This document shows positions 32,211 through 55,867 of a stretch of 64,000 nucleotides of DNA, one piece after another. This DNA is from a virus. Location: the IMG/VR virus record IMGVR_UViG_3300021437_000011, positions 28,247 through 92,246 of that record. One strand, 5' to 3'. Position 1 is the stretch's first letter. Each line of letters begins with the position of its first letter. The position numbers and the translations under genes are program-made. The notes under the pieces were generated by a model, which did no database searches, was not told where the DNA came from, and worked only from the letters and a program-made list of their open reading frames with translations.

Positions 32211-32630
32211 TGGAGGCGTCCACTTGTATGTGTTCTGAATGTGCGTGAAATTAAGCATCTCGAACATGCCAATCGATGGGTAGTTTCGCGGGTTGATGTT
32301 GGCGAAGAGAGGCGCGTTCGACCTCTGCTGGAGCCTGACGACGGCTCGTGGCCCGCGCCCCTTTCCACGATATCGCCGAAGCAGGAAGAGCCCAACTTCA
32401 TTCGCCTTGGAAAGGTACATGGCTCCGACGCGCACGCCGTCGTCAACGAGCAACCACCAGTCCTTGTATGGGCGTCCCAAAACAAAATCAACGTGTGTGG
32501 GACGGCCTGGCATTGAAATGTGGCTGATATTGGTGGTCTCGTCTCTCTCAGCGAGCAGATCGTAGAGAAAATCAAGCGTCTCTGAGGGGGGCTCCCCCTC
32601 TTGCGGGTAGATGCTCACCAATTCGATCAC
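32202..32630 (-). CDS. GNAT N-acetyltransferase, PseH-like
   Basis: YRGKG.G and NINP.N..SI..FE.L.F; GTGA overlap with upstream gene; last gene of the sugar operon. Confidence 0.75.
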   Translation of the reverse strand: MIELVSIYPQEGEPPSETLDFLYDLLAERDETTNISHISMPGRPTHVDFVLGRPYKDWWLLVDDGVRVGAMYLSKANEVGLFLLRRYRGKGRGPRAVVRLQQRSNAPLFANINPRNYPSIGMFEMLNFTHIQNTYKWTPPSN

Positions 32631-33244
32631 GGCTGCTTCTCCAGAAGATGCCAAGTCACGTTATCGAGCCCAGTGGCGGGCTTCCACTCAAAGCCATAGG
32701 CGATGCATCTGAGGTCCGGGAATCGCTCCAGATAGAGCGAGCCGTAGTCGGCCTTCCATAGCGCGCCAGCGCGCCCTCGATATTCGACCGCCGTCACCTC
32801 CGGGCTGAAATATTCGATGGCGGCGATCCAGTGACTGGAAACCCGGTGAATCTCGTCCATGGCCGCCCCAAGCTTCGCAGGGGGGATATGAATCAGGACT
32901 CCTGAAGTGAAGACAAAATCATTCGAGGCGTCCTGAAGCGGAATTTGGCCAGCGCAGCCGCTCAGGACCTCCGCCCCGATATTGGTTTTCATGTACTCCC
33001 TAGCGCGCTGGTTGGGCTCGATGGCGGTCAACGCCACGGTGGGGCCAACCATATATCTGAGCGCTTTCAGGTTGGCTCCACATCCCGCGCCAATCTCAAC
33101 CGCCGATCTGATCTTTTCTTTCATCGCTCCAACGATTTTGAGAAGGAGTCGGCGGCGAGCCTCAATATTTTCGAACGAAGAGCAGTTCCTCTCGGTATAG
33201 TCATCGCCAAACTGACCTTCCCACAGCTTAAGATTATCATCCAT
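32627..33244 (-). CDS. Pseudaminic-acid-biosynthesis-associated SAM methyltransferase
   Basis: W.G.FGD.YT.RN, EIGAG.GANL, FVFTSGVLIHI, YRG...LWK.DYG. Confidence 0.88.
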   Translation of the reverse strand: MDDNLKLWEGQFGDDYTERNCSSFENIEARRRLLLKIVGAMKEKIRSAVEIGAGCGANLKALRYMVGPTVALTAIEPNQRAREYMKTNIGAEVLSGCAGQIPLQDASNDFVFTSGVLIHIPPAKLGAAMDEIHRVSSHWIAAIEYFSPEVTAVEYRGRAGALWKADYGSLYLERFPDLRCIAYGFEWKPATGLDNVTWHLLEKQP

Positions 33245-33875
33245 TCGACGACCTCAATATATCTTCAAGTCTCTTTATGTCTTCGGGGAAGTCTACACAG
33301 TAGTTAATGTCGGAAACATTGACCTTAGCCGCCAGTGTCCCTATGTCAAGGCGTTTATTATTTTGCATCCAGGGAGTTACGTGCTCCCTATCGTACGGAT
33401 CAGATGCCTCTCCGCTTGCCGCCTCCAGGCAACCCATGGTAAAGCATTCGCAATCGAACCCTTTTGGAAATGTCCTGGTGGGATGCACGTTCGATGCGTA
33501 GTCAAGATCCTCTTTTTTAAGCATCTCAAGCACGAGTTCGCATAACGCAGGATCAATGAACGGACAGTCCGCTGTCAAGCGCATGATGATATCGGCTTTG
33601 ACATCCTTGGCCGCCTCTTGATAGCGGCCGAGGACGTCATCCTCATCTCCAGCGAAAGCAAGAACGCGCATCTCTCGGCATAGGTTCAGGATGGGCAAGG
33701 ACGCCTCATCCTCTGGGAACGCGCACACCACTTTATCAATCCCAGAAATAAGTTTGGCCCTCGTTAGGACATGCTCCAGAACAGGCTTCCCGTCGAGAAG
33801 CGCCATGGTTTTTCCTGGAAATCTTCTTGAAGTCATCCTCGCTTGTATAATGCACGCGCTTACAATTCCGGTCAT
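33237..33875 (-). CDS. SpsF/PseF-like cytidylyltransferase
   Basis: IIQARM.S.RFPGK, G.EDDVL.RY, RLTADCPFIDP, REHVTP. Confidence 0.88.
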   Translation of the reverse strand: MTGIVSACIIQARMTSRRFPGKTMALLDGKPVLEHVLTRAKLISGIDKVVCAFPEDEASLPILNLCREMRVLAFAGDEDDVLGRYQEAAKDVKADIIMRLTADCPFIDPALCELVLEMLKKEDLDYASNVHPTRTFPKGFDCECFTMGCLEAASGEASDPYDREHVTPWMQNNKRLDIGTLAAKVNVSDINYCVDFPEDIKRLEDILRSSNG

Positions 33876-34618
33876 CCTGCCAGCCTTGTGTTAATCCCAT
33901 GGTCATGGAGATAGCGCCGCGCCCCCTGCGGCGTCATCTCGGCAAAAAGAAACCCCGCGCCAACGGCCACCGCGTCGGCGCCAACTTCGAACGCCTCAAG
34001 GAGATGAGCGTAATTCCCAGCGCCGCCAGCCGCGATAACGGGAACGCTGACGGCGGTCGAAACCTTTTGGATCAAATCACGATCAAATCCCGCCTCGCCG
34101 CCATCATGGGGAATGCTGGTTAAAATGATCTCTCCAACGCCATCTTCAACAGCGGCGCGCGCCATACATTCTGGACGTATATTATTGATTTTATTGCCAC
34201 ATTCCGTAATAACGCGATCATGGGCGACATCGATCGCGGCGACTATGGCCTGGGCGCCAAAGCGCTCAGACGCCGCGCGGATCAAAACACGATCAAATAA
34301 TGCGGAACCGAGCACAACCTTATCCGCGCCGGCGCGAAGGAGCTCGCGGATATGCTCCAACGTCGAAACCCCGCCTCCGATCGCTACGGGCATGAAGCAT
34401 TCAGCAGTGAACTCCCTCAGCTCGGCGAAGCGCGGCTCGCGGGCCTCTGGCGTCGCCGCGACATCGAGAATGACCAGCTCATCGATCTGACGCCGGTCAC
34501 ACACCCGGATAGCCTGCATAAGGGAGCCAACATGGCGCCGGTTGTGGAACTGCTTTCCCTTCACCAAGGATTTGCCATCCCACAAAAGCGTGGTGATAAC
34601 CCGCCTCTTGATCATCAC
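33872..34618 (-). CDS. HisF-like cyclase (WbuZ type)
   Basis: LVKG.QF, IDEL..LD, CFMP..IGGGV, GADKVV, GEIILTSI..DG. Confidence 0.9.
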   Translation of the reverse strand: MMIKRRVITTLLWDGKSLVKGKQFHNRRHVGSLMQAIRVCDRRQIDELVILDVAATPEAREPRFAELREFTAECFMPVAIGGGVSTLEHIRELLRAGADKVVLGSALFDRVLIRAASERFGAQAIVAAIDVAHDRVITECGNKINNIRPECMARAAVEDGVGEIILTSIPHDGGEAGFDRDLIQKVSTAVSVPVIAAGGAGNYAHLLEAFEVGADAVAVGAGFLFAEMTPQGARRYLHDHGINTRLAG

Positions 34619-35736
34619 GCGACCTCAAAAAGCGGCGTAGGACGCGGCGCGCTCAGGGACAAACTGAAGATCTGCTTGTTCGTGAATCGATCGGCCACAT
34701 TCACAAAATCATTGAGATTCAGGCCGAGGGGGCCGACGATTTCATGGAGCGGCTTTCCCAAGTAGGTCCAAGGGAACGCCCCGTCACGCTCCCTGACCAA
34801 GGCGACGGCTTCACTGCGTGCGAGTCTCCCGCGGCGGATATGGTTGCAGGCTATGTCGGTGGCGCGGCCGTAACCGTATTTCACCCACCGTAGATAATCA
34901 CGGCCGCCAGTGCAATAATTATCAAGATTCTCATAACCATAAAGGCTGCCTTCGATGTGACCGTCAATGTATTCAAATCCGCTTTGCTCTGCTATAACAA
35001 AGTTCTCATACCCATCCCATGGGAAATATCTCCCAAGCCATACGGATTGTATGCCTTTTTCCGAAAGAATGTCGCTAGACGGGAACCTATACATAGCCAT
35101 GTCATCGCATGACAGCCCTAAAATTTCCTGAACATCATCAACGCGCAGACCCAAAAGCCCAGCAAATTCCTCAATATAGCGACGCGTCATGCGTGGCGTA
35201 TCTTCGGAGCCAGCGGGGCCTGCTCCGTATTCGTCCTGAGATAGCTCGCCAAAGACGATTGTTGGGATATTCCACTTCACGGCTGCCTGGAAGGGAATGG
35301 TGTGGATTAGCACATGCTCCGGCCACGACCAGTCGCCCACCTCAGTCAGAGCCAAGCGCATGATCCGATGGCGGACCTCATCATTGGGGTGAAATTCGAC
35401 GAGATCGCACATCCGGCCGATATTGTCCAGATTGCGTCGCCCGATTGGCGTCAACATGTCAGTCCGCGCGTTGACGGCGAGGACCCGGAAACCAAGATCC
35501 TTGCATTTCACAACCTGCGCCGTGCTATCCTTTCCGCCGCTGACGGGGACAATCACGAGGGGCTCCCCCTTATGCCGCCAGCTCAGCTCCACCGTCTTCG
35601 CGAATTCCACGGCCCTGGCGGCCCAGTCGACGGCTTGGCGGCGGTCATAATTCTGGCAGGCGGAACACAGGCCATCTTCATCAAAGCGAAGGTCTGGTTT
35701 CAGTTCGGGGTAAACGCAGCGTATGCAGTATCTCAT
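34615..35736 (-). CDS. N-acetyl sugar amidotransferase (WbuX/PseA type)
   Basis: C.RC.YP..KP...FD..G.CSAC, PP-loop VSGGKDS, KYGYGRAT. Confidence 0.9.
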   Translation of the reverse strand: MRYCIRCVYPELKPDLRFDEDGLCSACQNYDRRQAVDWAARAVEFAKTVELSWRHKGEPLVIVPVSGGKDSTAQVVKCKDLGFRVLAVNARTDMLTPIGRRNLDNIGRMCDLVEFHPNDEVRHRIMRLALTEVGDWSWPEHVLIHTIPFQAAVKWNIPTIVFGELSQDEYGAGPAGSEDTPRMTRRYIEEFAGLLGLRVDDVQEILGLSCDDMAMYRFPSSDILSEKGIQSVWLGRYFPWDGYENFVIAEQSGFEYIDGHIEGSLYGYENLDNYCTGGRDYLRWVKYGYGRATDIACNHIRRGRLARSEAVALVRERDGAFPWTYLGKPLHEIVGPLGLNLNDFVNVADRFTNKQIFSLSLSAPRPTPLFEVA

Positions 35737-35748
35737 AAAATTTACCCC

Positions 35749-36762
35749 TTATTCGAACATTCCCTCTGACAATGCTGTTCCCTTATCGAGGTCTCTTCTA
35801 GATTTTTTTCCCAGAACTCCAGAATATTTGCTAGGGTCCAACCCATATCCTGGACGTATTACTTTAACATTGTCACACGTGAAACATTCTCCTTTTTTTA
35901 TGTCTTCGACGACGTAGATTGACCTTTTCATTTGCATGCTGGTTTCTTCGCTTCTTGGAGCCTCGCATTGCATGGCGGCCCATGCCATTTCGACGGAGCT
36001 GACGAAGTCGCGGAAGCGCTCCGGGCGGCAGGCAAAGTCCTCGTCAGCGCTCCCGCGCTCTCCAATGTGCTTTTCAATGACGCGCACCCCGCACGCAACG
36101 GCGGCGATCGCCGTGATGTTGTTGATGGTATGGTCGCTGAAACCAATCTCATGGCGAGAAAAGCGGCTCTGCAGATTCCTGATAGACCACAGATTGGCCT
36201 CCCGAACTGGTGTGGGGTAGCCCGACACACAGTGCAGAATGACGACGTCGCGCCCATAGAGGGCGTCCAGAGCCGCATTGATGTCATAGAGGCTTGCCAT
36301 GCCCGTGGAGATAATGACGGGCTTCTGCGTCTCGCGAACGCGCTCCAAAAGCTGAAAATGGTTGATCTCGGCCGATGCGATTTTATAGGCGGGGCAGTCG
36401 ATTTCCTCTAGAAAATCAACATCCTCAACCGAGAACGGGCTGGAGAAAATCGGAACGCCCAAGCCTTCCGCAGCATCAAAAAGCGGCCTGTGCCACTCGC
36501 GAGGCGTCATCGCCTCGCTGTACAGGTCATAGAGGTTCCGCCCTTTCCAGGCGCCGCCCTTGATCTCGAAGTCCGGGCCATTGCACTTGATCGTCAGGCT
36601 ATCGGGAGTGTAGGTCTGGATCTTGATCGCCCCAGCGCCGGCGCGCGCTGCGTCAACGACAAGCTCTTGGGCCTGCTCCAGGTCGCCACAGTGACCGCTT
36701 CCGATCTCCGCAATGGTAAGGGGCGGGCGGTTGAGCCCGAAGTCGTACCCAAGGATATTCAT
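35749..36762 (-). CDS. pseI: Pseudaminic acid synthase (NeuB family, C-terminal SAF domain)
   Basis: IAEIG..H.G, K.QTYTPD, YKIAS.E, IISTGMA, LHCVSGYP, GFSDHT, IEKH, IRPG.GL.P. Confidence 0.88.
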   Translation of the reverse strand: MNILGYDFGLNRPPLTIAEIGSGHCGDLEQAQELVVDAARAGAGAIKIQTYTPDSLTIKCNGPDFEIKGGAWKGRNLYDLYSEAMTPREWHRPLFDAAEGLGVPIFSSPFSVEDVDFLEEIDCPAYKIASAEINHFQLLERVRETQKPVIISTGMASLYDINAALDALYGRDVVILHCVSGYPTPVREANLWSIRNLQSRFSRHEIGFSDHTINNITAIAAVACGVRVIEKHIGERGSADEDFACRPERFRDFVSSVEMAWAAMQCEAPRSEETSMQMKRSIYVVEDIKKGECFTCDNVKVIRPGYGLDPSKYSGVLGKKSRRDLDKGTALSEGMFE

Positions 36763-37373
36763 TTGAAGATCTCCAACATCGACAAATCTGGATATTGATC
36801 GTTATGCAGATCAGGATTGCATCGAGGCAGGGAATGGAGCTTCAACAGCCCCTGGGCAGATGTTGATGGATTCATATAGCAATGCCATCCCAGCATAGGA
36901 AAAGCGTCGTTTTTCGGGGCTACGCCCTCAGTCCGGCCATCAAATCGCGCGCGGCGGAACCAAGCGTCAGCCTCGGGATCATCATGAAGGATAGCGCCGC
37001 CCTGCTCTAGCCCCAGGATCTTGGAAGCGTGGAAAGAGACGCAAACATACTTGTAGTCCTCCTCGCGCCCCGTGGTTGCGAACATCCTCCACGTAAAGCG
37101 CCTAGCAGCATCGTAAATTCTGTGCGGCCACAGCCGGTAAGCGCCCCTCCATGGTCTATCCTCAAATTTAACCGTTCCTCCAGCATGGATAATGCTCATG
37201 GGGACACTGACATATGTACGTTTTGGGATAATAACTTCGCCTACGCATTTATATTTACAGCATAAGAATAGAGCCATTGTGCACGAATTCACAGCAACGG
37301 CGTAAGGAGCGCCAGTATATTCGCATAGCGCTTCTTCGAAATCTTTCGTTACCTGATGTGGGTTGCGCGTCAT
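36759..37373 (-). CDS. Short DegT/DnrJ PLP aminotransferase (PseC-like)
   Basis: FE..L..YTGAPYAVAVNSCT.AL, SFH.SK.L..EQGG; only about 204 aa. Confidence 0.8.
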   Translation of the reverse strand: MTRNPHQVTKDFEEALCEYTGAPYAVAVNSCTMALFLCCKYKCVGEVIIPKRTYVSVPMSIIHAGGTVKFEDRPWRGAYRLWPHRIYDAARRFTWRMFATTGREEDYKYVCVSFHASKILGLEQGGAILHDDPEADAWFRRARFDGRTEGVAPKNDAFPMLGWHCYMNPSTSAQGLLKLHSLPRCNPDLHNDQYPDLSMLEIFK

Positions 37374-37374
37374 C

Positions 37375-38334
37375 TTAAACGGACCCAAGCAGCATCTTCA
37401 GGTCATCCGTCGACAGCCACTTATCATTGCGCTCCGAACTCAGCGAGAAACCCTCTTCCATGGGCTCGCTGGGCAAGAGCCAAGGCGGGCAGACGACGAA
37501 GGCGTATTCGTTCTGCGTCGCCGTCCGCCCCTCGTGGACAGTGATAATATCCTCGTGGAGCTTTTCTCCTGGTCGAACGCCAATGATTTCGCACGGGTAA
37601 TCATCCTGGCCATAGATTGCGGCGGCCAGATCCGAGATGCGAAAGCTGGGCATCCGCGGGATGAAGACCTCGCCGCCTTGCATTACGCCCAGACCATTCA
37701 GGACAAACTCCACGGCGTCTTGAATTGTAATCCAAAAGCGGGTCATGTCGAGGTGAGTGACGGGCAACGGCCTGCCCAGGGCGGACAGGAAGCGCCACCG
37801 GGGGATAACGGACCCGCGCGAGCCCGAAACGTTGCCGTAGCGAACGACCGAAAAGGCGGGGCCTCCCGCGCTGGTGAGATTGTTGGCGGCGACAAACAGC
37901 TTCTCGGCTGAGAGTTTCGTGGCTCCGTAAAGATTCGCTGGAGAAACAGCCTTATCCGTGGACAGAGCTATGACTTTAGCTACGCCGCAGGCCAGGGCGG
38001 CGCTTATGACATTGGACGCGCCTCCAATGTTGGTTTTAATCGCTTCAATGGGGTCTTTTTCGCATGCTGGGACGATCTTCATCGCCGCGGCGTGGATCAC
38101 GACGTCCACGCCCTTGAACGCCATTTTGAGACGATTCTCATCACGAACATCGCCAATATAAAACCGGAGCCGATCATCGGCGAGGGACTCCGGCCGCGCC
38201 AACGCCATAGCCTCTTGCTTCTGTTCGTCGCGCGAATAGATGGCGATTTTGGCGATGTTCCGGTCAAGGAGCAGCCTATCCACGATCGCTTGGCCAAAAG
38301 TGCCGGTTCCGCCAGTAATGAGAACGCTGTTCAT
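37375..38334 (-). CDS. pseB: UDP-GlcNAc 4,6-dehydratase (inverting)
   Basis: ITGGTGTFG, SRDE.KQ, GDVRD, HAAA.K.VP..E, STDKA..P.NLYGATK, RYGNV.GSRGSV, MTRFWIT, RPGEKLHE. Confidence 0.92.
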   Translation of the reverse strand: MNSVLITGGTGTFGQAIVDRLLLDRNIAKIAIYSRDEQKQEAMALARPESLADDRLRFYIGDVRDENRLKMAFKGVDVVIHAAAMKIVPACEKDPIEAIKTNIGGASNVISAALACGVAKVIALSTDKAVSPANLYGATKLSAEKLFVAANNLTSAGGPAFSVVRYGNVSGSRGSVIPRWRFLSALGRPLPVTHLDMTRFWITIQDAVEFVLNGLGVMQGGEVFIPRMPSFRISDLAAAIYGQDDYPCEIIGVRPGEKLHEDIITVHEGRTATQNEYAFVVCPPWLLPSEPMEEGFSLSSERNDKWLSTDDLKMLLGSV

Positions 38335-38723
38335 GCGCCAGCCTCCTTTTGCTCGGGAATCCCGACCATCCACGCCGGGGGGAGGACAAAATCATAATGG
38401 AGGGGGCGCCAGAGATGGAGGCAGTTGACGTGGTTGTTGATATGGTCGGATTCGGCGACATGGAATTGAACCGCTACCTCATGGGGCAGGAAAAACGCCC
38501 TTTTGATGAATTCCATTTCGATCCAATTGGGAACCCGGTTCTTGCGGCTCACGGACACATGGTCCCAACCTTCTCCAGAAGAAGCGATGACGCACATAAA
38601 CGCTTTATCAATGGGCGACATGAGGAAGAATCGCCCGCAGGAATCATCCCCATATCCGCCGTATATTGCAATGACATCACGAGACCTGTCCCTAAATTGG
38701 TTCAGGTCATTCAAGTTCCGCAT
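38331..38723 (-). CDS. Conserved phage hypothetical protein
   Basis: GWDHVSVS...R.P.W.EM..IK..FF...H...SDHIN.H..CLHLWRP pattern. Confidence 0.75.
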   Translation of the reverse strand: MRNLNDLNQFRDRSRDVIAIYGGYGDDSCGRFFLMSPIDKAFMCVIASSGEGWDHVSVSRKNRVPNWIEMEFIKRAFFLPHEVAVQFHVAESDHINNHVNCLHLWRPLHYDFVLPPAWMVGIPEQKEAGA

Positions 38724-38996
38724 GCGTGTACTCCAATGCCAGCGCAAGGCGCGCTAAAATACTTCGTATTGGAGGAGGGGGTCCAATCCAGGAGCTTTCC
38801 GTCATGGAATCTTAAAAGTCAATCTATTTTAATGACTTGTCTGGGGAAATTAGTTCGTGAGCTGATTAATAGGAACTTGGTTACGACAAAAAGTAGATAA
38901 AAATCAACAAAAACAGTAAACGTTTCTTGATATATGTGGTAACACCGCTCATGTTACGAGCGAGTATATTCTAAATTTCCAAAGGGACATGAGAGA

Positions 38997-39259: not shown

Positions 39260-39617
39260 CATGGGAGCGTTGATTCGTGCCGGAATATGCCTGGGCAAGT
39301 CGTCTCGTACGCAAATGGTCCCATCAGTTCACTTCGTGCATACGCATAAGGTAGACGTATCCGACGTGCGCTTCATGCAGTAAATATCCCGTGCGATCTT
39401 GCTTGTGTTGGCCCATGTCGAGATGGACGTGCTTCGTGCAGCGGGCGTCACTTAAGCGTACTAGCCGTCTTTGCAAATCGAGCTTAAGCGCTGGGAATCA
39501 ATTGGATCGCTCGTGCTTTTTCACGGCGCGCCTCTTCGTGCAAGCATGAGAGCCAGCGAAGGCGCGTGCATCCCAGCCCGCATTGAAGTTGCTGGCCTAG
39601 CCGGATCGAACATGTAG

Positions 39618-40133
39618 TCGTGGATCGTGCTCGCGTGGAAGATATAGGCTATTCGCTAATACCCCTGTAATTATTACTCGTGCCTCCGTGCTCGCGTGGA
39701 GGATACCGATCTATGACAATCACATTTGATCACCTCCGCCGTGCATCCGCGTTCGCGTGGGGGATACACGATATTCGATTTGTAGGCGAAGCCCCACGCC
39801 CGTGCATCCGCGTTCGCGTGGGGGATGCTATAAACTTTGTTGCGGTATGCCATAGGATTCCCGTGCATCCGCGCTCGCGTGGAGGATACTATTAATTTTC
39901 TTGCAGCGATGTTATACCCTGCCGTGCATCCGCGCTCGCGTGGAGGATACGGGATCACCCATTGATCCGGGCCGTTATTCGCCCGTGCATCCGCGCTCGC
40001 GTGGAGGATACACCTCCGCATCCCATTTCGGGCCAGATCGGGCCCGTGCATCCGCGCTCGCGTGGAGGATACTAAAGCTCGATGGCGTCGGCGACGGTGA
40101 GGGCCCGTGCATCCGCGCTCGCGTGGAGGATAC
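39618..40133 (-). CRISPR. CRISPR array: 9 repeats (29 nt, type I-E-like, GTATCCTCCACGCGAGCGCGGATGCACGG) and 8 spacers of 32 nt
   Basis: Repeats start at 39618 (degenerate, 28 nt), 39678, 39739, 39800, 39861, 39922, 39983, 40044 and 40105, a 61-nt period. Degeneration increases leftward, placing the leader on the right (minus-strand transcription). Confidence 0.96.
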
Positions 40134-40409
40134 CCTTCCGCGTAAGCGTATGATCCATATATCAAAGAGCACGGATAGCTTCGCCCACCACCACAGGAAC
40201 GCTTTATTCCCCCGTCTTCGTGCGCCGACTCGTAGACCGCGAATACACACGTTCCGCCGCCAAGCTACACTCTAGTGCCGTTGCCTTGCTGTCGGCTCAC
40301 TCCCCCGAGGGTTTGTGCTGCGCACCCGCTTGGCCTTACACGGCAGCCCCCTGAAACCTCAGCTTCAGAGGGCGGGCAGTTACTTTCCCCCGCACGCGAG
40401 GGTAGGGGA
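40134..40409 (-). ncRNA. Putative omegaRNA/tracrRNA-like scaffold and array leader
   Basis: Lies between the tnpB-like stop and the first repeat. Minus strand reads UACCCUCGCGUGCGGGGGAAAGUAACUGCCCG...GUAAGGC...CGAAGACGGGGGAA, resembling IS605 omegaRNA landmarks from memory. Contains a hairpin at ~40348-40372 and CCGUGCUC, complementary to the repeat 3' end. Confidence 0.55.
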
Positions 40410-41831
40410 TCAATCCCAAGCTCGTTTGAGCTGGCTAGCCGCCTTGGCGATCTGGCCTTGCTCATATTCATTTTGCGCGGCGTTGGCTTGCCGCGAAACG
40501 TAATTACCGCAATCGCATATTAGCATGCGCTTTTCAAGAGGCATGTAATGGAGTTTCCCACACCGCGAGCATTTTTGCACCTCGGGAAAGAGCGTATGCG
40601 TTTCGTTGTACGTGCGACCGCGGTCGACAGCCTTGTATCCAAGGTAGCCCCGGAACTGCGCCATGGCGGCGCGCTTGTTCGCTTTTGTCAGGATTTTAGG
40701 AACTCTTTCAACATCTCCCGTCTGTTTGTTAACCCTTTTTGTCGTCATGAGCGATTTAACATCCATCTTATGCACAGTTATCGTGTCGAACTGCTTAACG
40801 ATCGCGTCAGAGACCTTATGCAGCATATCGTCGCGTCGATTGCGCTCCTTGGCGTGGAGATTCGCCAATTCGTCGGCTGTCTTGTAATAATCCTTCGTCC
40901 CCTTATGGCGGCGCGCCAAACGTCGGTTAGCGAGCCTGATGCGCCGCGCCAGCTTCCTGTCCTCTTTCATCGGCGGCGTTTGCTGGATTTTTTCCCCGTC
41001 GAATGTGGTCGCCAGAATGCTGGCGGAGATCTTGACGCCGCATTCGCGCCCGAAGTGTGGATAGGGTTTGGGGTCAGGGACTTCGAATTGACAAGACAGC
41101 CACCACTGCTCTCCCAGACGCCAGATGCGCCCTCCCTGCAGCTTGCCGTCAATAGGGACGCCCTCTTGCCTGAAGGTGATAGCTTGTTTCAGCTTCGGCA
41201 GCTTCACCTCTCGGGCTTTGTGGTCAAATATTGTTTGAGTGTTGACCATATAGACGCTCCCTACGGCATAGCGCGACTTTTTGAAGCGGGGGAACCCTGT
41301 GTCTCTTCCTCCAGCCCCGTCTTTGCGCTTCTTCCGCTCAAGGAGCATGGTTTTTATGGCTTTGACGACATCCTTACAGACCTGCTGAGAGGAGTGTGAG
41401 GGAAGCGCCTCAATCCATTTCATGGTCGGATTCTCCTTGAGACGAGCCATGATCTTCTGAAGATCGCTTTCCCAAATAAAAAGTTTGGGAGGCTCTCCAT
41501 CCACAGAGGAACCGGAAATTTTTTGGTAATGGTCTTGCGGCGGCTCTACAGGCTCCTTCCCTTCTCCAGGTTTTTTCTTAACAATTCCATACTTTGTTTT
41601 CTTGCCATATTTCCAGGAATGGAGAGCATCCGCATATCCCTCCTTAACGACTTGCGCCCAAATCTCGCGCCAGCGTAATTCTGGGCGGAATTTTGATCCG
41701 TCGTAGGCCGCCTGCTCCATCCCAAGCAGCAAATTCCACAGGTTTATGCCTCCTCGACGCCACCGATCCATGGTCCTCGCCTGCTCGGGCGTCGGCTTCA
41801 GCTTTATCTTAACCCCACGCATTACCGCCAT
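40410..41831 (-). CDS. Nuclease-dead TnpB/Cas12-like RNA-guided protein (TldR-like), CRISPR-associated
   Basis: KIKLKPTPEQ N-terminus, GFPRFKK, VKLPKL, WWLSCQFEV; RuvC-I GVKIS (D to K267), RuvC-II ITVHKMDV (E to H354), CSRC/CDC zinc finger, RuvC-III SRQANAAQN (D to Q448). Confidence 0.88.
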   Translation of the reverse strand: MAVMRGVKIKLKPTPEQARTMDRWRRGGINLWNLLLGMEQAAYDGSKFRPELRWREIWAQVVKEGYADALHSWKYGKKTKYGIVKKKPGEGKEPVEPPQDHYQKISGSSVDGEPPKLFIWESDLQKIMARLKENPTMKWIEALPSHSSQQVCKDVVKAIKTMLLERKKRKDGAGGRDTGFPRFKKSRYAVGSVYMVNTQTIFDHKAREVKLPKLKQAITFRQEGVPIDGKLQGGRIWRLGEQWWLSCQFEVPDPKPYPHFGRECGVKISASILATTFDGEKIQQTPPMKEDRKLARRIRLANRRLARRHKGTKDYYKTADELANLHAKERNRRDDMLHKVSDAIVKQFDTITVHKMDVKSLMTTKRVNKQTGDVERVPKILTKANKRAAMAQFRGYLGYKAVDRGRTYNETHTLFPEVQKCSRCGKLHYMPLEKRMLICDCGNYVSRQANAAQNEYEQGQIAKAASQLKRAWD

Positions 41832-42205
41832 TTATTCCCTGCCTTTAGCCATTGCCGTGATTTTATGAATGTGTGAACATATGGTATGCAACCATACTTG
41901 TCATCCAACCAAAGTGGAGGAGTTTATGCGCTGCGCATACACGGTGGTTATAGAGTGCGGAGAAATAACATGTAATGAAAGAGAAAAATCATGCGTTTTC
42001 TTAGCGATAAGGCGAACAGGCTCAGAGGCTGTCTGCTTATTTCCTCACGGCGGACCCCTTAATGGCAAGAGGGTCACTCCCCTGCGGACAAGAGAGGGGT
42101 GGGTCATCAGATCCGAGGACTGCAAAGACGCTTTCAAGGTTGTCGATAGCGAGTAGCGCATTAAGAAATAACCATATTCCAGGCAAAATATGCATAGGTA
42201 TCAAG

Positions 42206-55309: not shown

Positions 55310-55867
55310 TCACTCATCCTTTCTGTGCAAGATGCGATGCACAGAACCTGCACCTATGCCTAGCTGCTTAGCTATAGCCGCCATGCTCAGCCCTTGTGCT
55401 CTCAGTGACGCTACGTTGCCCGCCAGCGCCTGTGCAGTTTTCGCCCTACCCTTGTACCTGCCAGCAGCTTTAGCGGCCTGTATGCCCTCCCTTTGCCGTT
55501 CTAGCATGATCTCACGTTCGAACTGCGCCACACTGGCGAAAATGTTCAGCGTGAGTCGCCCTGCTGGCGTGCTCGTGTCCATCGATGGGCTGAGGATGCG
55601 CAGCGCCACGGTTTTGCGTTCCAGCTTATCCGCTATCTCAATAAGATTGCGTATGCTTCTGGCGAGCCTATCGATTTTAGTTACAATGAACACGTCCCCC
55701 TCCCGCACGAACTCCAACGCGGCGTCAAGCTGGGCGCGCGTGGCGTCCACAGAGCTCAATTGCTCACTGAAAACCTTCTCAGCGCCAGCAAGCGCTAGGT
55801 CGCGAAGCTGGGCGTCGAGCCCCGCAACCTGTTCAATCGTTGATGTGCGCGCATATCCCACTTTCAT
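55310..55867 (-). CDS. Serine recombinase (resolvase/invertase family)
   Basis: VGYARTST.EQ, R.QL..AL.FVREGD, KIDRLARS, FEREIMLERQREGI..AK..G, C-terminal HTH. Confidence 0.95.
   Translation of the reverse strand: MKVGYARTSTIEQVAGLDAQLRDLALAGAEKVFSEQLSSVDATRAQLDAALEFVREGDVFIVTKIDRLARSIRNLIEIADKLERKTVALRILSPSMDTSTPAGRLTLNIFASVAQFEREIMLERQREGIQAAKAAGRYKGRAKTAQALAGNVASLRAQGLSMAAIAKQLGIGAGSVHRILHRKDE

Follow-up and report, generated by a model that had tools for sequence, protein, structure and literature searches.

A phage from freshwater carries a CRISPR array in which one 33-nt element is, judging from its sequence, a real spacer that originated at the ribosome-binding site and start codon of thsB, a Thoeris defence gene. 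The array stands beside the gene for a TnpB/Cas12f-like effector whose RuvC nuclease centre is dead. The explanation that best accounts for the whole, and to which we give a probability of about 45%, is that the guide made from this spacer leads the dead effector to thsB-thsA and silences these genes in the manner of CRISPR interference (CRISPRi). We consider such an anti-Thoeris role plausible but unproven. The DNA analysed, referred to here as the window, is 64,000 nucleotides long and comprises bases 28247-92246 of a 92,246-bp virus record that is complete by CheckV; the phage is present in three sequencing runs (X1-X3), all of them freshwater metagenomes. The features discussed are collected in Table 1.

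Table 1. Features of the phage window that bear on the thsB spacer (positions are those of the window).
Feature	Position	Strand	Description
CRISPR array	39618..40133	-	61-nt period; five perfect repeats nearest the effector, then degenerate copies; seven clean 33-nt spacers
Neighbouring spacer encoding AWGFAYKSNIV	39768..39800	-	interior of an MT-A70 (DPPW) DNA methyltransferase gene, coding sense
Repeat 3' of thsB spacer	39801..39828	-	25/28; first degenerate trailer-side copy
thsB spacer, 33 nt, fifth of the array	39829..39861	-	GGA + 5 nt + ATG + MAYRNKVY codons + A
ATG within thsB spacer	39851..39853	-	equals the thsB start codon in all homologous loci
Repeat 5' of thsB spacer in guide sense	39862..39889	-	last perfect 28/28 copy
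Structured scaffold, tracrRNA-like, 276 nt	40134..40409	-	predicted; between effector stop codon and first repeat; anti-repeat core ~40188-40202
TnpB/Cas12f-like effector, 473 aa	40410..41831	-	dead RuvC (K267, H354, Q448); zinc-finger cysteines kept
Sigma-70-like promoter match	41876..41904	-	just upstream of effector; consensus match only
Tad2-like protein, 81 aa	63508..63753	-	PF11195; candidate Thoeris signal sponge

The array keeps a fixed period of 61 nt, and eight of its repeats match the core at no fewer than 25 of 28 positions. Five 28-nt cores are perfect (at 40106, 40045, 39984, 39923 and 39862), and the copies leftward of them match at 25, 26, 26, 17 and 20 of 28 positions. Defined by this core, the spacer under study spans 33 nt, one leading G beyond the 32 nt given in the preliminary description; all seven array spacers are likewise 33 nt long and begin with G. 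An initial G on every spacer is expected in type I-E adaptation if the last base of the PAM is co-inserted. Since the thsB spacer lies behind the last perfect repeat, its guide would carry an intact repeat handle. We found no cas1-cas2 in the phage genome, through the whole of which cas1e was looked for, so the array is inherited and frozen; this absence and the decay of the trailer-side repeats both suggest that the thsB spacer is old. The array repeat had no match in viral contigs, and self- or cross-targeting was not detected, in that no array spacer matched the phage's own genome or the related loci.

In guide sense, the reverse complement of 39829-39860 reads GAATCCT-ATG-GCA-TAC-CGC-AAC-AAA-GTT-TAT-A and lies between two repeats, confirming the earlier reading of seven nucleotides of untranslated region followed by codons for MAYRNKVY. 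A codon-degenerate pattern for this octapeptide, which would miss targets with another residue 7 (T or I), returned 19 matches, on 4 genome contigs, 14 metagenome contigs and 1 viral contig, the genome part of the scan covering 185,579 species genomes. About 15 of the 19 are true start codons, with a Shine-Dalgarno sequence upstream, of proteins of ~166 aa that belong to PF08937 (ThsB_TIR) and match the PADLOC model ThsB1 PDLC00429 end to end (E ~1e-72). The N-terminus hardly varies among 113 full-length homologues and follows M-[APS]-Y-R-N-K-[TIV]-[YF]-[VIT]. The earlier statement that ThsB-type TIR proteins often begin MAYRNK[TV]Y holds for 45 of these 113, the exact start MAYRNKVY occurs in five, and 31 have I or T as residue 9, in agreement with the final A of the spacer. 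When scored by position against this N-terminus, the thsB spacer reached 29.6 bits; the runner-up among 119 spacers of the CRISPR family scored -12.5, and 6.2 bits was the highest score among 300,000 control 33-mers in all six reading frames. The spacer, with its ATG in frame, therefore covers the start region of a ThsB-type TIR gene, as had been proposed.

PADLOC, run at the matched loci as the preliminary description had recommended, identified ThsB1 PDLC00429 and, in eight of nine loci, a Macro-domain ThsA (PDLC00414, E 1e-39 to 1e-58) directly downstream of thsB on the same strand. By these profile matches and this gene order, the thsB family of the spacer belongs to thsB-thsA operons of type II Thoeris, which signals with His-ADPR, and thsB is the first gene. 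Because thsB comes first, blocking its start would, by polarity, affect thsA as well. An operon of this family also occurs in viral sequence (contig L020), which means that the spacer could have had its original target outside the chromosome.

At the DNA level, the best match to the thsB spacer is 25/32, with seven mismatches, at the thsB starts of loci L003 and L008. The codon-degenerate scan led to thsB starts only, none of them above 25/32. An exact 24-mer of the coding part had no match in viral, genome or metagenome contigs; annotated phage and plasmid collections, searched by blastn with the complete array, gave nothing for this spacer; and no contig of runs X1-X3 held the spacer outside the array (in X2, at a depth of 2-4, the array interior had no cover, so that its absence there carries no weight). 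No near-identical protospacer (~30/33 or better) was found in the collections searched. With no protospacer above 25/32, the earlier claim that the target is a host immune gene is an assumption, although the origin of the spacer from a thsB gene is supported. Searches beyond this spacer were similarly sparse: the related arrays L028 and L024 gave nothing useful against phages, degenerate patterns for two further array spacers had no viral matches, a megablast of the locus against isolate phages found no match, and no family-array spacer convincingly matched an isolate phage or plasmid, except for a methyltransferase motif described below.

We examined the effector by profile, alignment and predicted structure. 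Its profile matches include NCBIfam TnpB (1e-42), the V-F-typed PADLOC model Cas12_x2 (2e-109), and Cas12u4 and Cas12f (~1e-41); the PADLOC model Cas12u1 (V-U1), which we take to be the Cas12m profile, matches weakly (E 7e-9) at the C-terminus. The best structural match of an AlphaFold model (pLDDT 85.7) is TnpB, followed by Cas12f, Cas12p, Cas12m and sigma-E-linked dCas12f, with AsCas12f and Cas12m2 among the matches. Where ISDra2 TnpB has its catalytic D191, E278 and D361, the phage effector has K267, H354 and Q448, respectively, and the CxxC...CxC zinc finger is retained. In each of some 80 homologues (E below 1e-49), K stands at RuvC-I and the RuvC-III position is not acidic, whereas the D-E-D triad is intact in ordinary TnpBs from that search. 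Catalytic loss common to these ~80 homologues indicates an old, conserved nuclease-dead clade and not a broken gene. The catalytic part of the earlier proposal of a non-cutting effector is consequently well supported, all three RuvC residues being replaced and the loss being family-wide, which predicts a protein that does not cut.

The effector, a scaffold and the array form a conserved module. A 61-nt-period array lies downstream of an effector homologue in eight of nine related viral loci, the ninth ending too early. In six related loci two ORFs, of ~287 and ~100 aa, stand in front of the array; in the three of these loci that were tested, they are Cas1e (E ~1e-90) and Cas2e (E ~1e-23). The ~280 nt upstream of the first repeat are conserved across all eight array loci, and RNAalifold predicts for this scaffold 66 pairs, with compensatory changes in 38. 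A predicted helix between the anti-repeat and the first repeat co-varies between loci; together with the initial G of the spacers and the position of the degenerate repeats far from the effector, it places guide sense on the minus strand of the window. With this sense, which is read from DNA and predicted folding, the thsB guide would be coding-strand sequence and would pair with the template strand. Strand can matter greatly for a catalytically dead type V protein: with dead Cas12a in E. coli, template-strand guides inside a gene repressed ~330-fold, and guides to the other strand ~6-fold or not at all (PMC5460296).

In the silencing explanation, an ancestor of the phage would have taken up the spacer from the 5' end of thsB by means of type I-E-style Cas1e-Cas2e, the acquired piece running from within the Shine-Dalgarno sequence through the start codon to codon 8. 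The array would be transcribed on the minus strand together with the effector and the ~276-nt scaffold; the repeat upstream of the spacer would pair with the scaffold anti-repeat, and the guide would load the nuclease-dead TnpB/Cas12f-like protein. The guide would then anneal to the template strand where the thsB-thsA operon begins, and the complex bound there would block RNA polymerase, turning off thsB directly and thsA by polarity. Any replicon that carries the operon could be silenced in this way, including one in the current host, with a presumed benefit to the phage. Repression cannot remove ThsB protein that has already been made. Of integrase and ParB, none was found in the genome, which has a small serine recombinase only, and the portal relatives all lie on phage-sized contigs (up to ~92 kb). 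A prolonged stay in the cell, the setting in which repression would matter despite pre-made ThsB, is therefore not established. Overall, the silencing interpretation put forward in the preliminary description is partly supported; it draws on one old spacer that has no known target.

Thoeris is a plausible pressure on this phage because the genome also carries a Tad2-like gene. That gene had been noticed from the letters of the window, and its assignment is confirmed by PF11195, at 76.6 bits against a curated cut-off of 25, and by matches to Tad2 structures in the PDB (SptTad2 5e-11, SPO1 Tad2 3e-9, ModTad2 1.6e-8). Tad2 of the SPO1 type does not block type II Thoeris, which only the ModTad2 clade does, and the phage protein resembles Tad2 proteins that block type I and those that block type II to about the same degree. 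Since the thsB family of the spacer is type II and the Tad2-like protein cannot be assigned to a clade, an attack on the same system at two levels is no more than a possibility.

A more ambitious reading, which we hold to be rather unlikely, is that the lineage possesses an adaptive and heritable form of CRISPRi, in which Cas1e-Cas2e would copy host or rival DNA, the dead effector and its scaffold would switch genes off, and the thsB-thsA guide would add to a Tad2-type sponge. If true, this would be the first programmable, sequence-learned anti-defence that acts by silencing and not by cutting, a learnable and non-destructive viral way to turn off host immunity. Most of the known counter-defences of phages are dedicated inhibitor proteins (Tad1, Tad2, Acr), and there is one well-studied cutting phage CRISPR (ICP1 versus PLE); dead type V proteins that silence under RNA guidance have been described in plasmid competition (Cas12m) and in one prophage-host case (TldR versus flagellin). 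The effector family is also a candidate compact natural CRISPRi tool. Should the target be absent or the guide inert, the finding shrinks to an old spacer of recognisable origin.

The alternative that survives best, though we think it unlikely, is that the dead-effector system competes with other mobile elements, like Cas12m and type IV systems, and that thsB was picked up as cargo of a rival prophage, plasmid or phage, its start position being a coincidence. Spacers would then be drawn from any foreign or host DNA at hand, whatever the function of the gene or the position within it. Here the neighbouring methyltransferase spacer is informative. It is the only array spacer with a near-identical environmental protospacer, a 32/34 match on a 169-nt contig of the independent freshwater run X3, the flanks of which continue the reading frame; an A-G-G precedes the 32-nt match in this single low-depth contig. 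It also matches, at 30/33, Mesorhizobium phage Lo5R7ANS, beside a restriction enzyme. This protospacer is mid-gene, away from any start, and the methyltransferase is of a type that phages carry, as would be expected of competition between mobile elements. The family as a whole points the same way. A Shine-Dalgarno-plus-start signature occurred among the 119 family spacers 7 times in guide sense and 7 times in reverse, and strand calls were 61 sense to 58 antisense by a caller that is only ~60% accurate. Start-site targeting is no habit of this CRISPR family. One of the seven array spacers covers a start codon in this fashion, and since a 33-nt spacer would cover some start codon in ~3% of random acquisitions, finding one among seven or eight is no surprise as far as position alone goes. 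The family operon on the viral contig likewise fits a mobile source for thsB, and type V and type IV systems that are carried by mobile elements and are dead or do not cut are reported to target rivals (PMC11656645). Against competition as the whole account, the family spacers, the methyltransferase motif aside, lack a convincing isolate phage or plasmid match, and both readable spacers derive from defence-type genes in coding sense, a pattern in which recognition is itself biased to conserved motifs.

Slightly less likely still, in our assessment, is that the thsB spacer is a fossil, an old acquisition in a decaying array that has no present target and yields a guide that is inert today. The absence of cas1e, the mere 276 nt that separate effector and array, the erosion of the trailer-side repeats and the failure of any database sequence to exceed 25/32 would all be at home in a relic. 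Yet the reading frame of the effector is unbroken, and its close homologues (62-83% identical) are full length and keep the conserved residues; the scaffold, too, is conserved, and five of the repeats are free of changes. The methyltransferase spacer, although more distal in the array, still has its 32/34 protospacer in a present-day freshwater sample.

We judge it very improbable that the array stands alone, in type I-E style, and borrows a host Cascade-Cas3, in which case the thsB locus would be cut and the dead effector would be unrelated. Repeats of 28-29 nt, spacers of 32-33 nt with an initial G, and Cas1e-Cas2e in relatives do recall type I-E. However, the array travels with the dead effector in eight of nine related viral loci, a scaffold with a co-varying anti-repeat lies between the two, and in type I-E orientation the degenerate repeats would fall on the leader side. 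Cas7e is missing from the phage, and no Cascade or Cas6e genes were seen among the ORFs beside the effector in the related loci. The sole Cas6e-like match in the phage was judged spurious, being below the cut-off at 15 bits, interrupted by an internal TGA and antisense to a long ORF. As for a spacer unrelated to thsB, for which the lack of a DNA-level protospacer might speak, the chance is negligible given a score of 29.6 bits where the best of 300,000 controls reached 6.2, an in-frame ATG with GGA 5 nt upstream, and a last base that fits residue 9 of the family.

A literature search found no published description of a phage dead-Cas12 array with a defence-gene spacer, and we compared the system with those that it most resembles. 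The type I-F system of phage ICP1, directed at the Vibrio PLE, is a parallel in purpose as summarised in PMC11656645: it too is a phage-encoded CRISPR system with spacers at a host anti-phage element, but by that account it is complete, cuts and has demonstrated targets, whereas here the effector is nuclease-dead and the target is deduced from eight codons only. Cas12f (V-F) shares with the phage effector a compact size, a tracrRNA:crRNA architecture and a zinc finger, and the best PADLOC match is the V-F-typed Cas12_x2; canonical Cas12f cuts DNA, unlike the predicted dead effector. The sigma-E-linked dCas12f (PMC13472631) is a transcriptional activator without an array of its own any longer, encoded on Bacteroidetes chromosomes; the phage system has kept its array, and no sigma factor was found among the ORFs examined beside the effector. 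The main text of a 2023 census of TnpB and Cas12 proteins lists three CRISPR-linked branches, V-U24, V-U43 and V-U44, with all three catalytic residues mutated, and gives for them no targets, phage association or Cas1e-Cas2e link (PMC10691335). The effector family may be one of these inactivated branches.

Two further systems act by silencing. Cas12m (V-M) is a small type V effector with a CRISPR array on mobile elements such as plasmids and prophages, and it binds without cutting and silences transcription, including that of genes on rival plasmids (PMC11656645). The phage system differs in that all three RuvC acidic residues are gone, the scaffold is tracrRNA-like, Cas1e-Cas2e occur in relatives, and the effector is closer to TnpB/Cas12f. 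TldR is a phage-encoded, TnpB-derived protein with a decayed RuvC and an adjacent guide RNA, and in a prophage it represses a host gene by excluding RNA polymerase (bioRxiv 10.1101/2023.11.30.569447). It uses one fixed omega-RNA-type guide to promoter elements, with no array or adaptation genes, in contrast to the multi-spacer array described here and the Cas1e-Cas2e of its relatives; the TldR site consists of -10/-35 elements, and that of the thsB guide would be a ribosome-binding site and start codon. On these comparisons, the phage system appears to resemble Cas12m and TldR in its working, and is a member of neither.

The spacer that neighbours the one derived from the thsB start encodes a methyltransferase motif, and matches to it were found in two places. 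In Mesorhizobium phage Lo5R7ANS, 30 of its 33 nucleotides agree with a gene that adjoins a restriction endonuclease. A 169-nt contig from an independent freshwater run carries a 32/34 match, and A-G-G precedes the 32-nt match there. In the more distal spacer, a GTG lies 9 nt past the GGAGG core of the Shine-Dalgarno sequence and opens a frame that continues up to the spacer end; the repeat upstream of this spacer is a degenerate copy. This spacer may be a second one taken from a translation-start region.

Coordinates of features in the phage window and on one viral contig (n/28, bases agreeing with the 28-nt repeat core)
Feature	Position	Strand	Description
Pseudaminic-acid biosynthesis operon	32627-38373	-	Immediately left of array
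DUF7694 protein	38331-38747	-	Immediately left of array
Weak repeat remnants	39335-39592		Left of array; 20/28 at 39565, 16/28 at 39335
Distal spacer	39707-39739	-	Carries a perfect extended Shine-Dalgarno sequence (GGAGGTGATC)
Neighbouring spacer	39768-39800	-	Encodes MT-A70 methyltransferase motif AWGFAYKSNIV
Small serine recombinase	55454-55861	-	Resolvase domain, 130.9 bits; 193-aa frame
Type II Thoeris thsB-thsA operon, MAYRNKVY family	L020:4841-6282		Contig IMGVR_UViG_3300035388_000030, classed viral

The present array is probably what remains of a longer one that eroded from its trailer end, where several CGTGC motifs spaced ~55-60 nt apart accompany the repeat remnants. A variant of the phage is present in a second freshwater sample (run X2), whose contigs are 100% identical across the left flank of the array (window 39498-39668) and cover the scaffold with six differences (window 40206-40500). 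No X2 contig covers the array interior (depth 2-4), and one departs from the phage sequence left of 40206; array content may differ among strains, or the low depth may have broken the assembly.

The pseudaminic-acid operon comprises PseB, a PseC-like fragment, PseI, a WbuX/WbuZ-type amidotransferase pair, a cytidylyltransferase and a Pse-associated methylase. The serine recombinase is the only recombinase found in the phage, in which neither a tyrosine integrase nor ParB was detected; this enzyme may act as an invertase or as a dimer resolvase instead of as an integrase. Given that the contig bearing the tabulated Thoeris operon is classed as viral, thsB-thsA operons of the MAYRNKVY family therefore travel on mobile elements too.

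Related viral contigs (L022-L030) define a phage locus family that combines a dead Cas12-like effector (570-710 aa) with Cas1e, Cas2e and a conserved scaffold RNA; its arrays hold as many as 28 spacers, and in L028 one spacer occurs twice. None of the 112 spacers from these arrays matched isolate phages. One member, L027, appears to lack cas1-cas2, as does the phage studied here, because its effector and array are separated by only ~550 nt.
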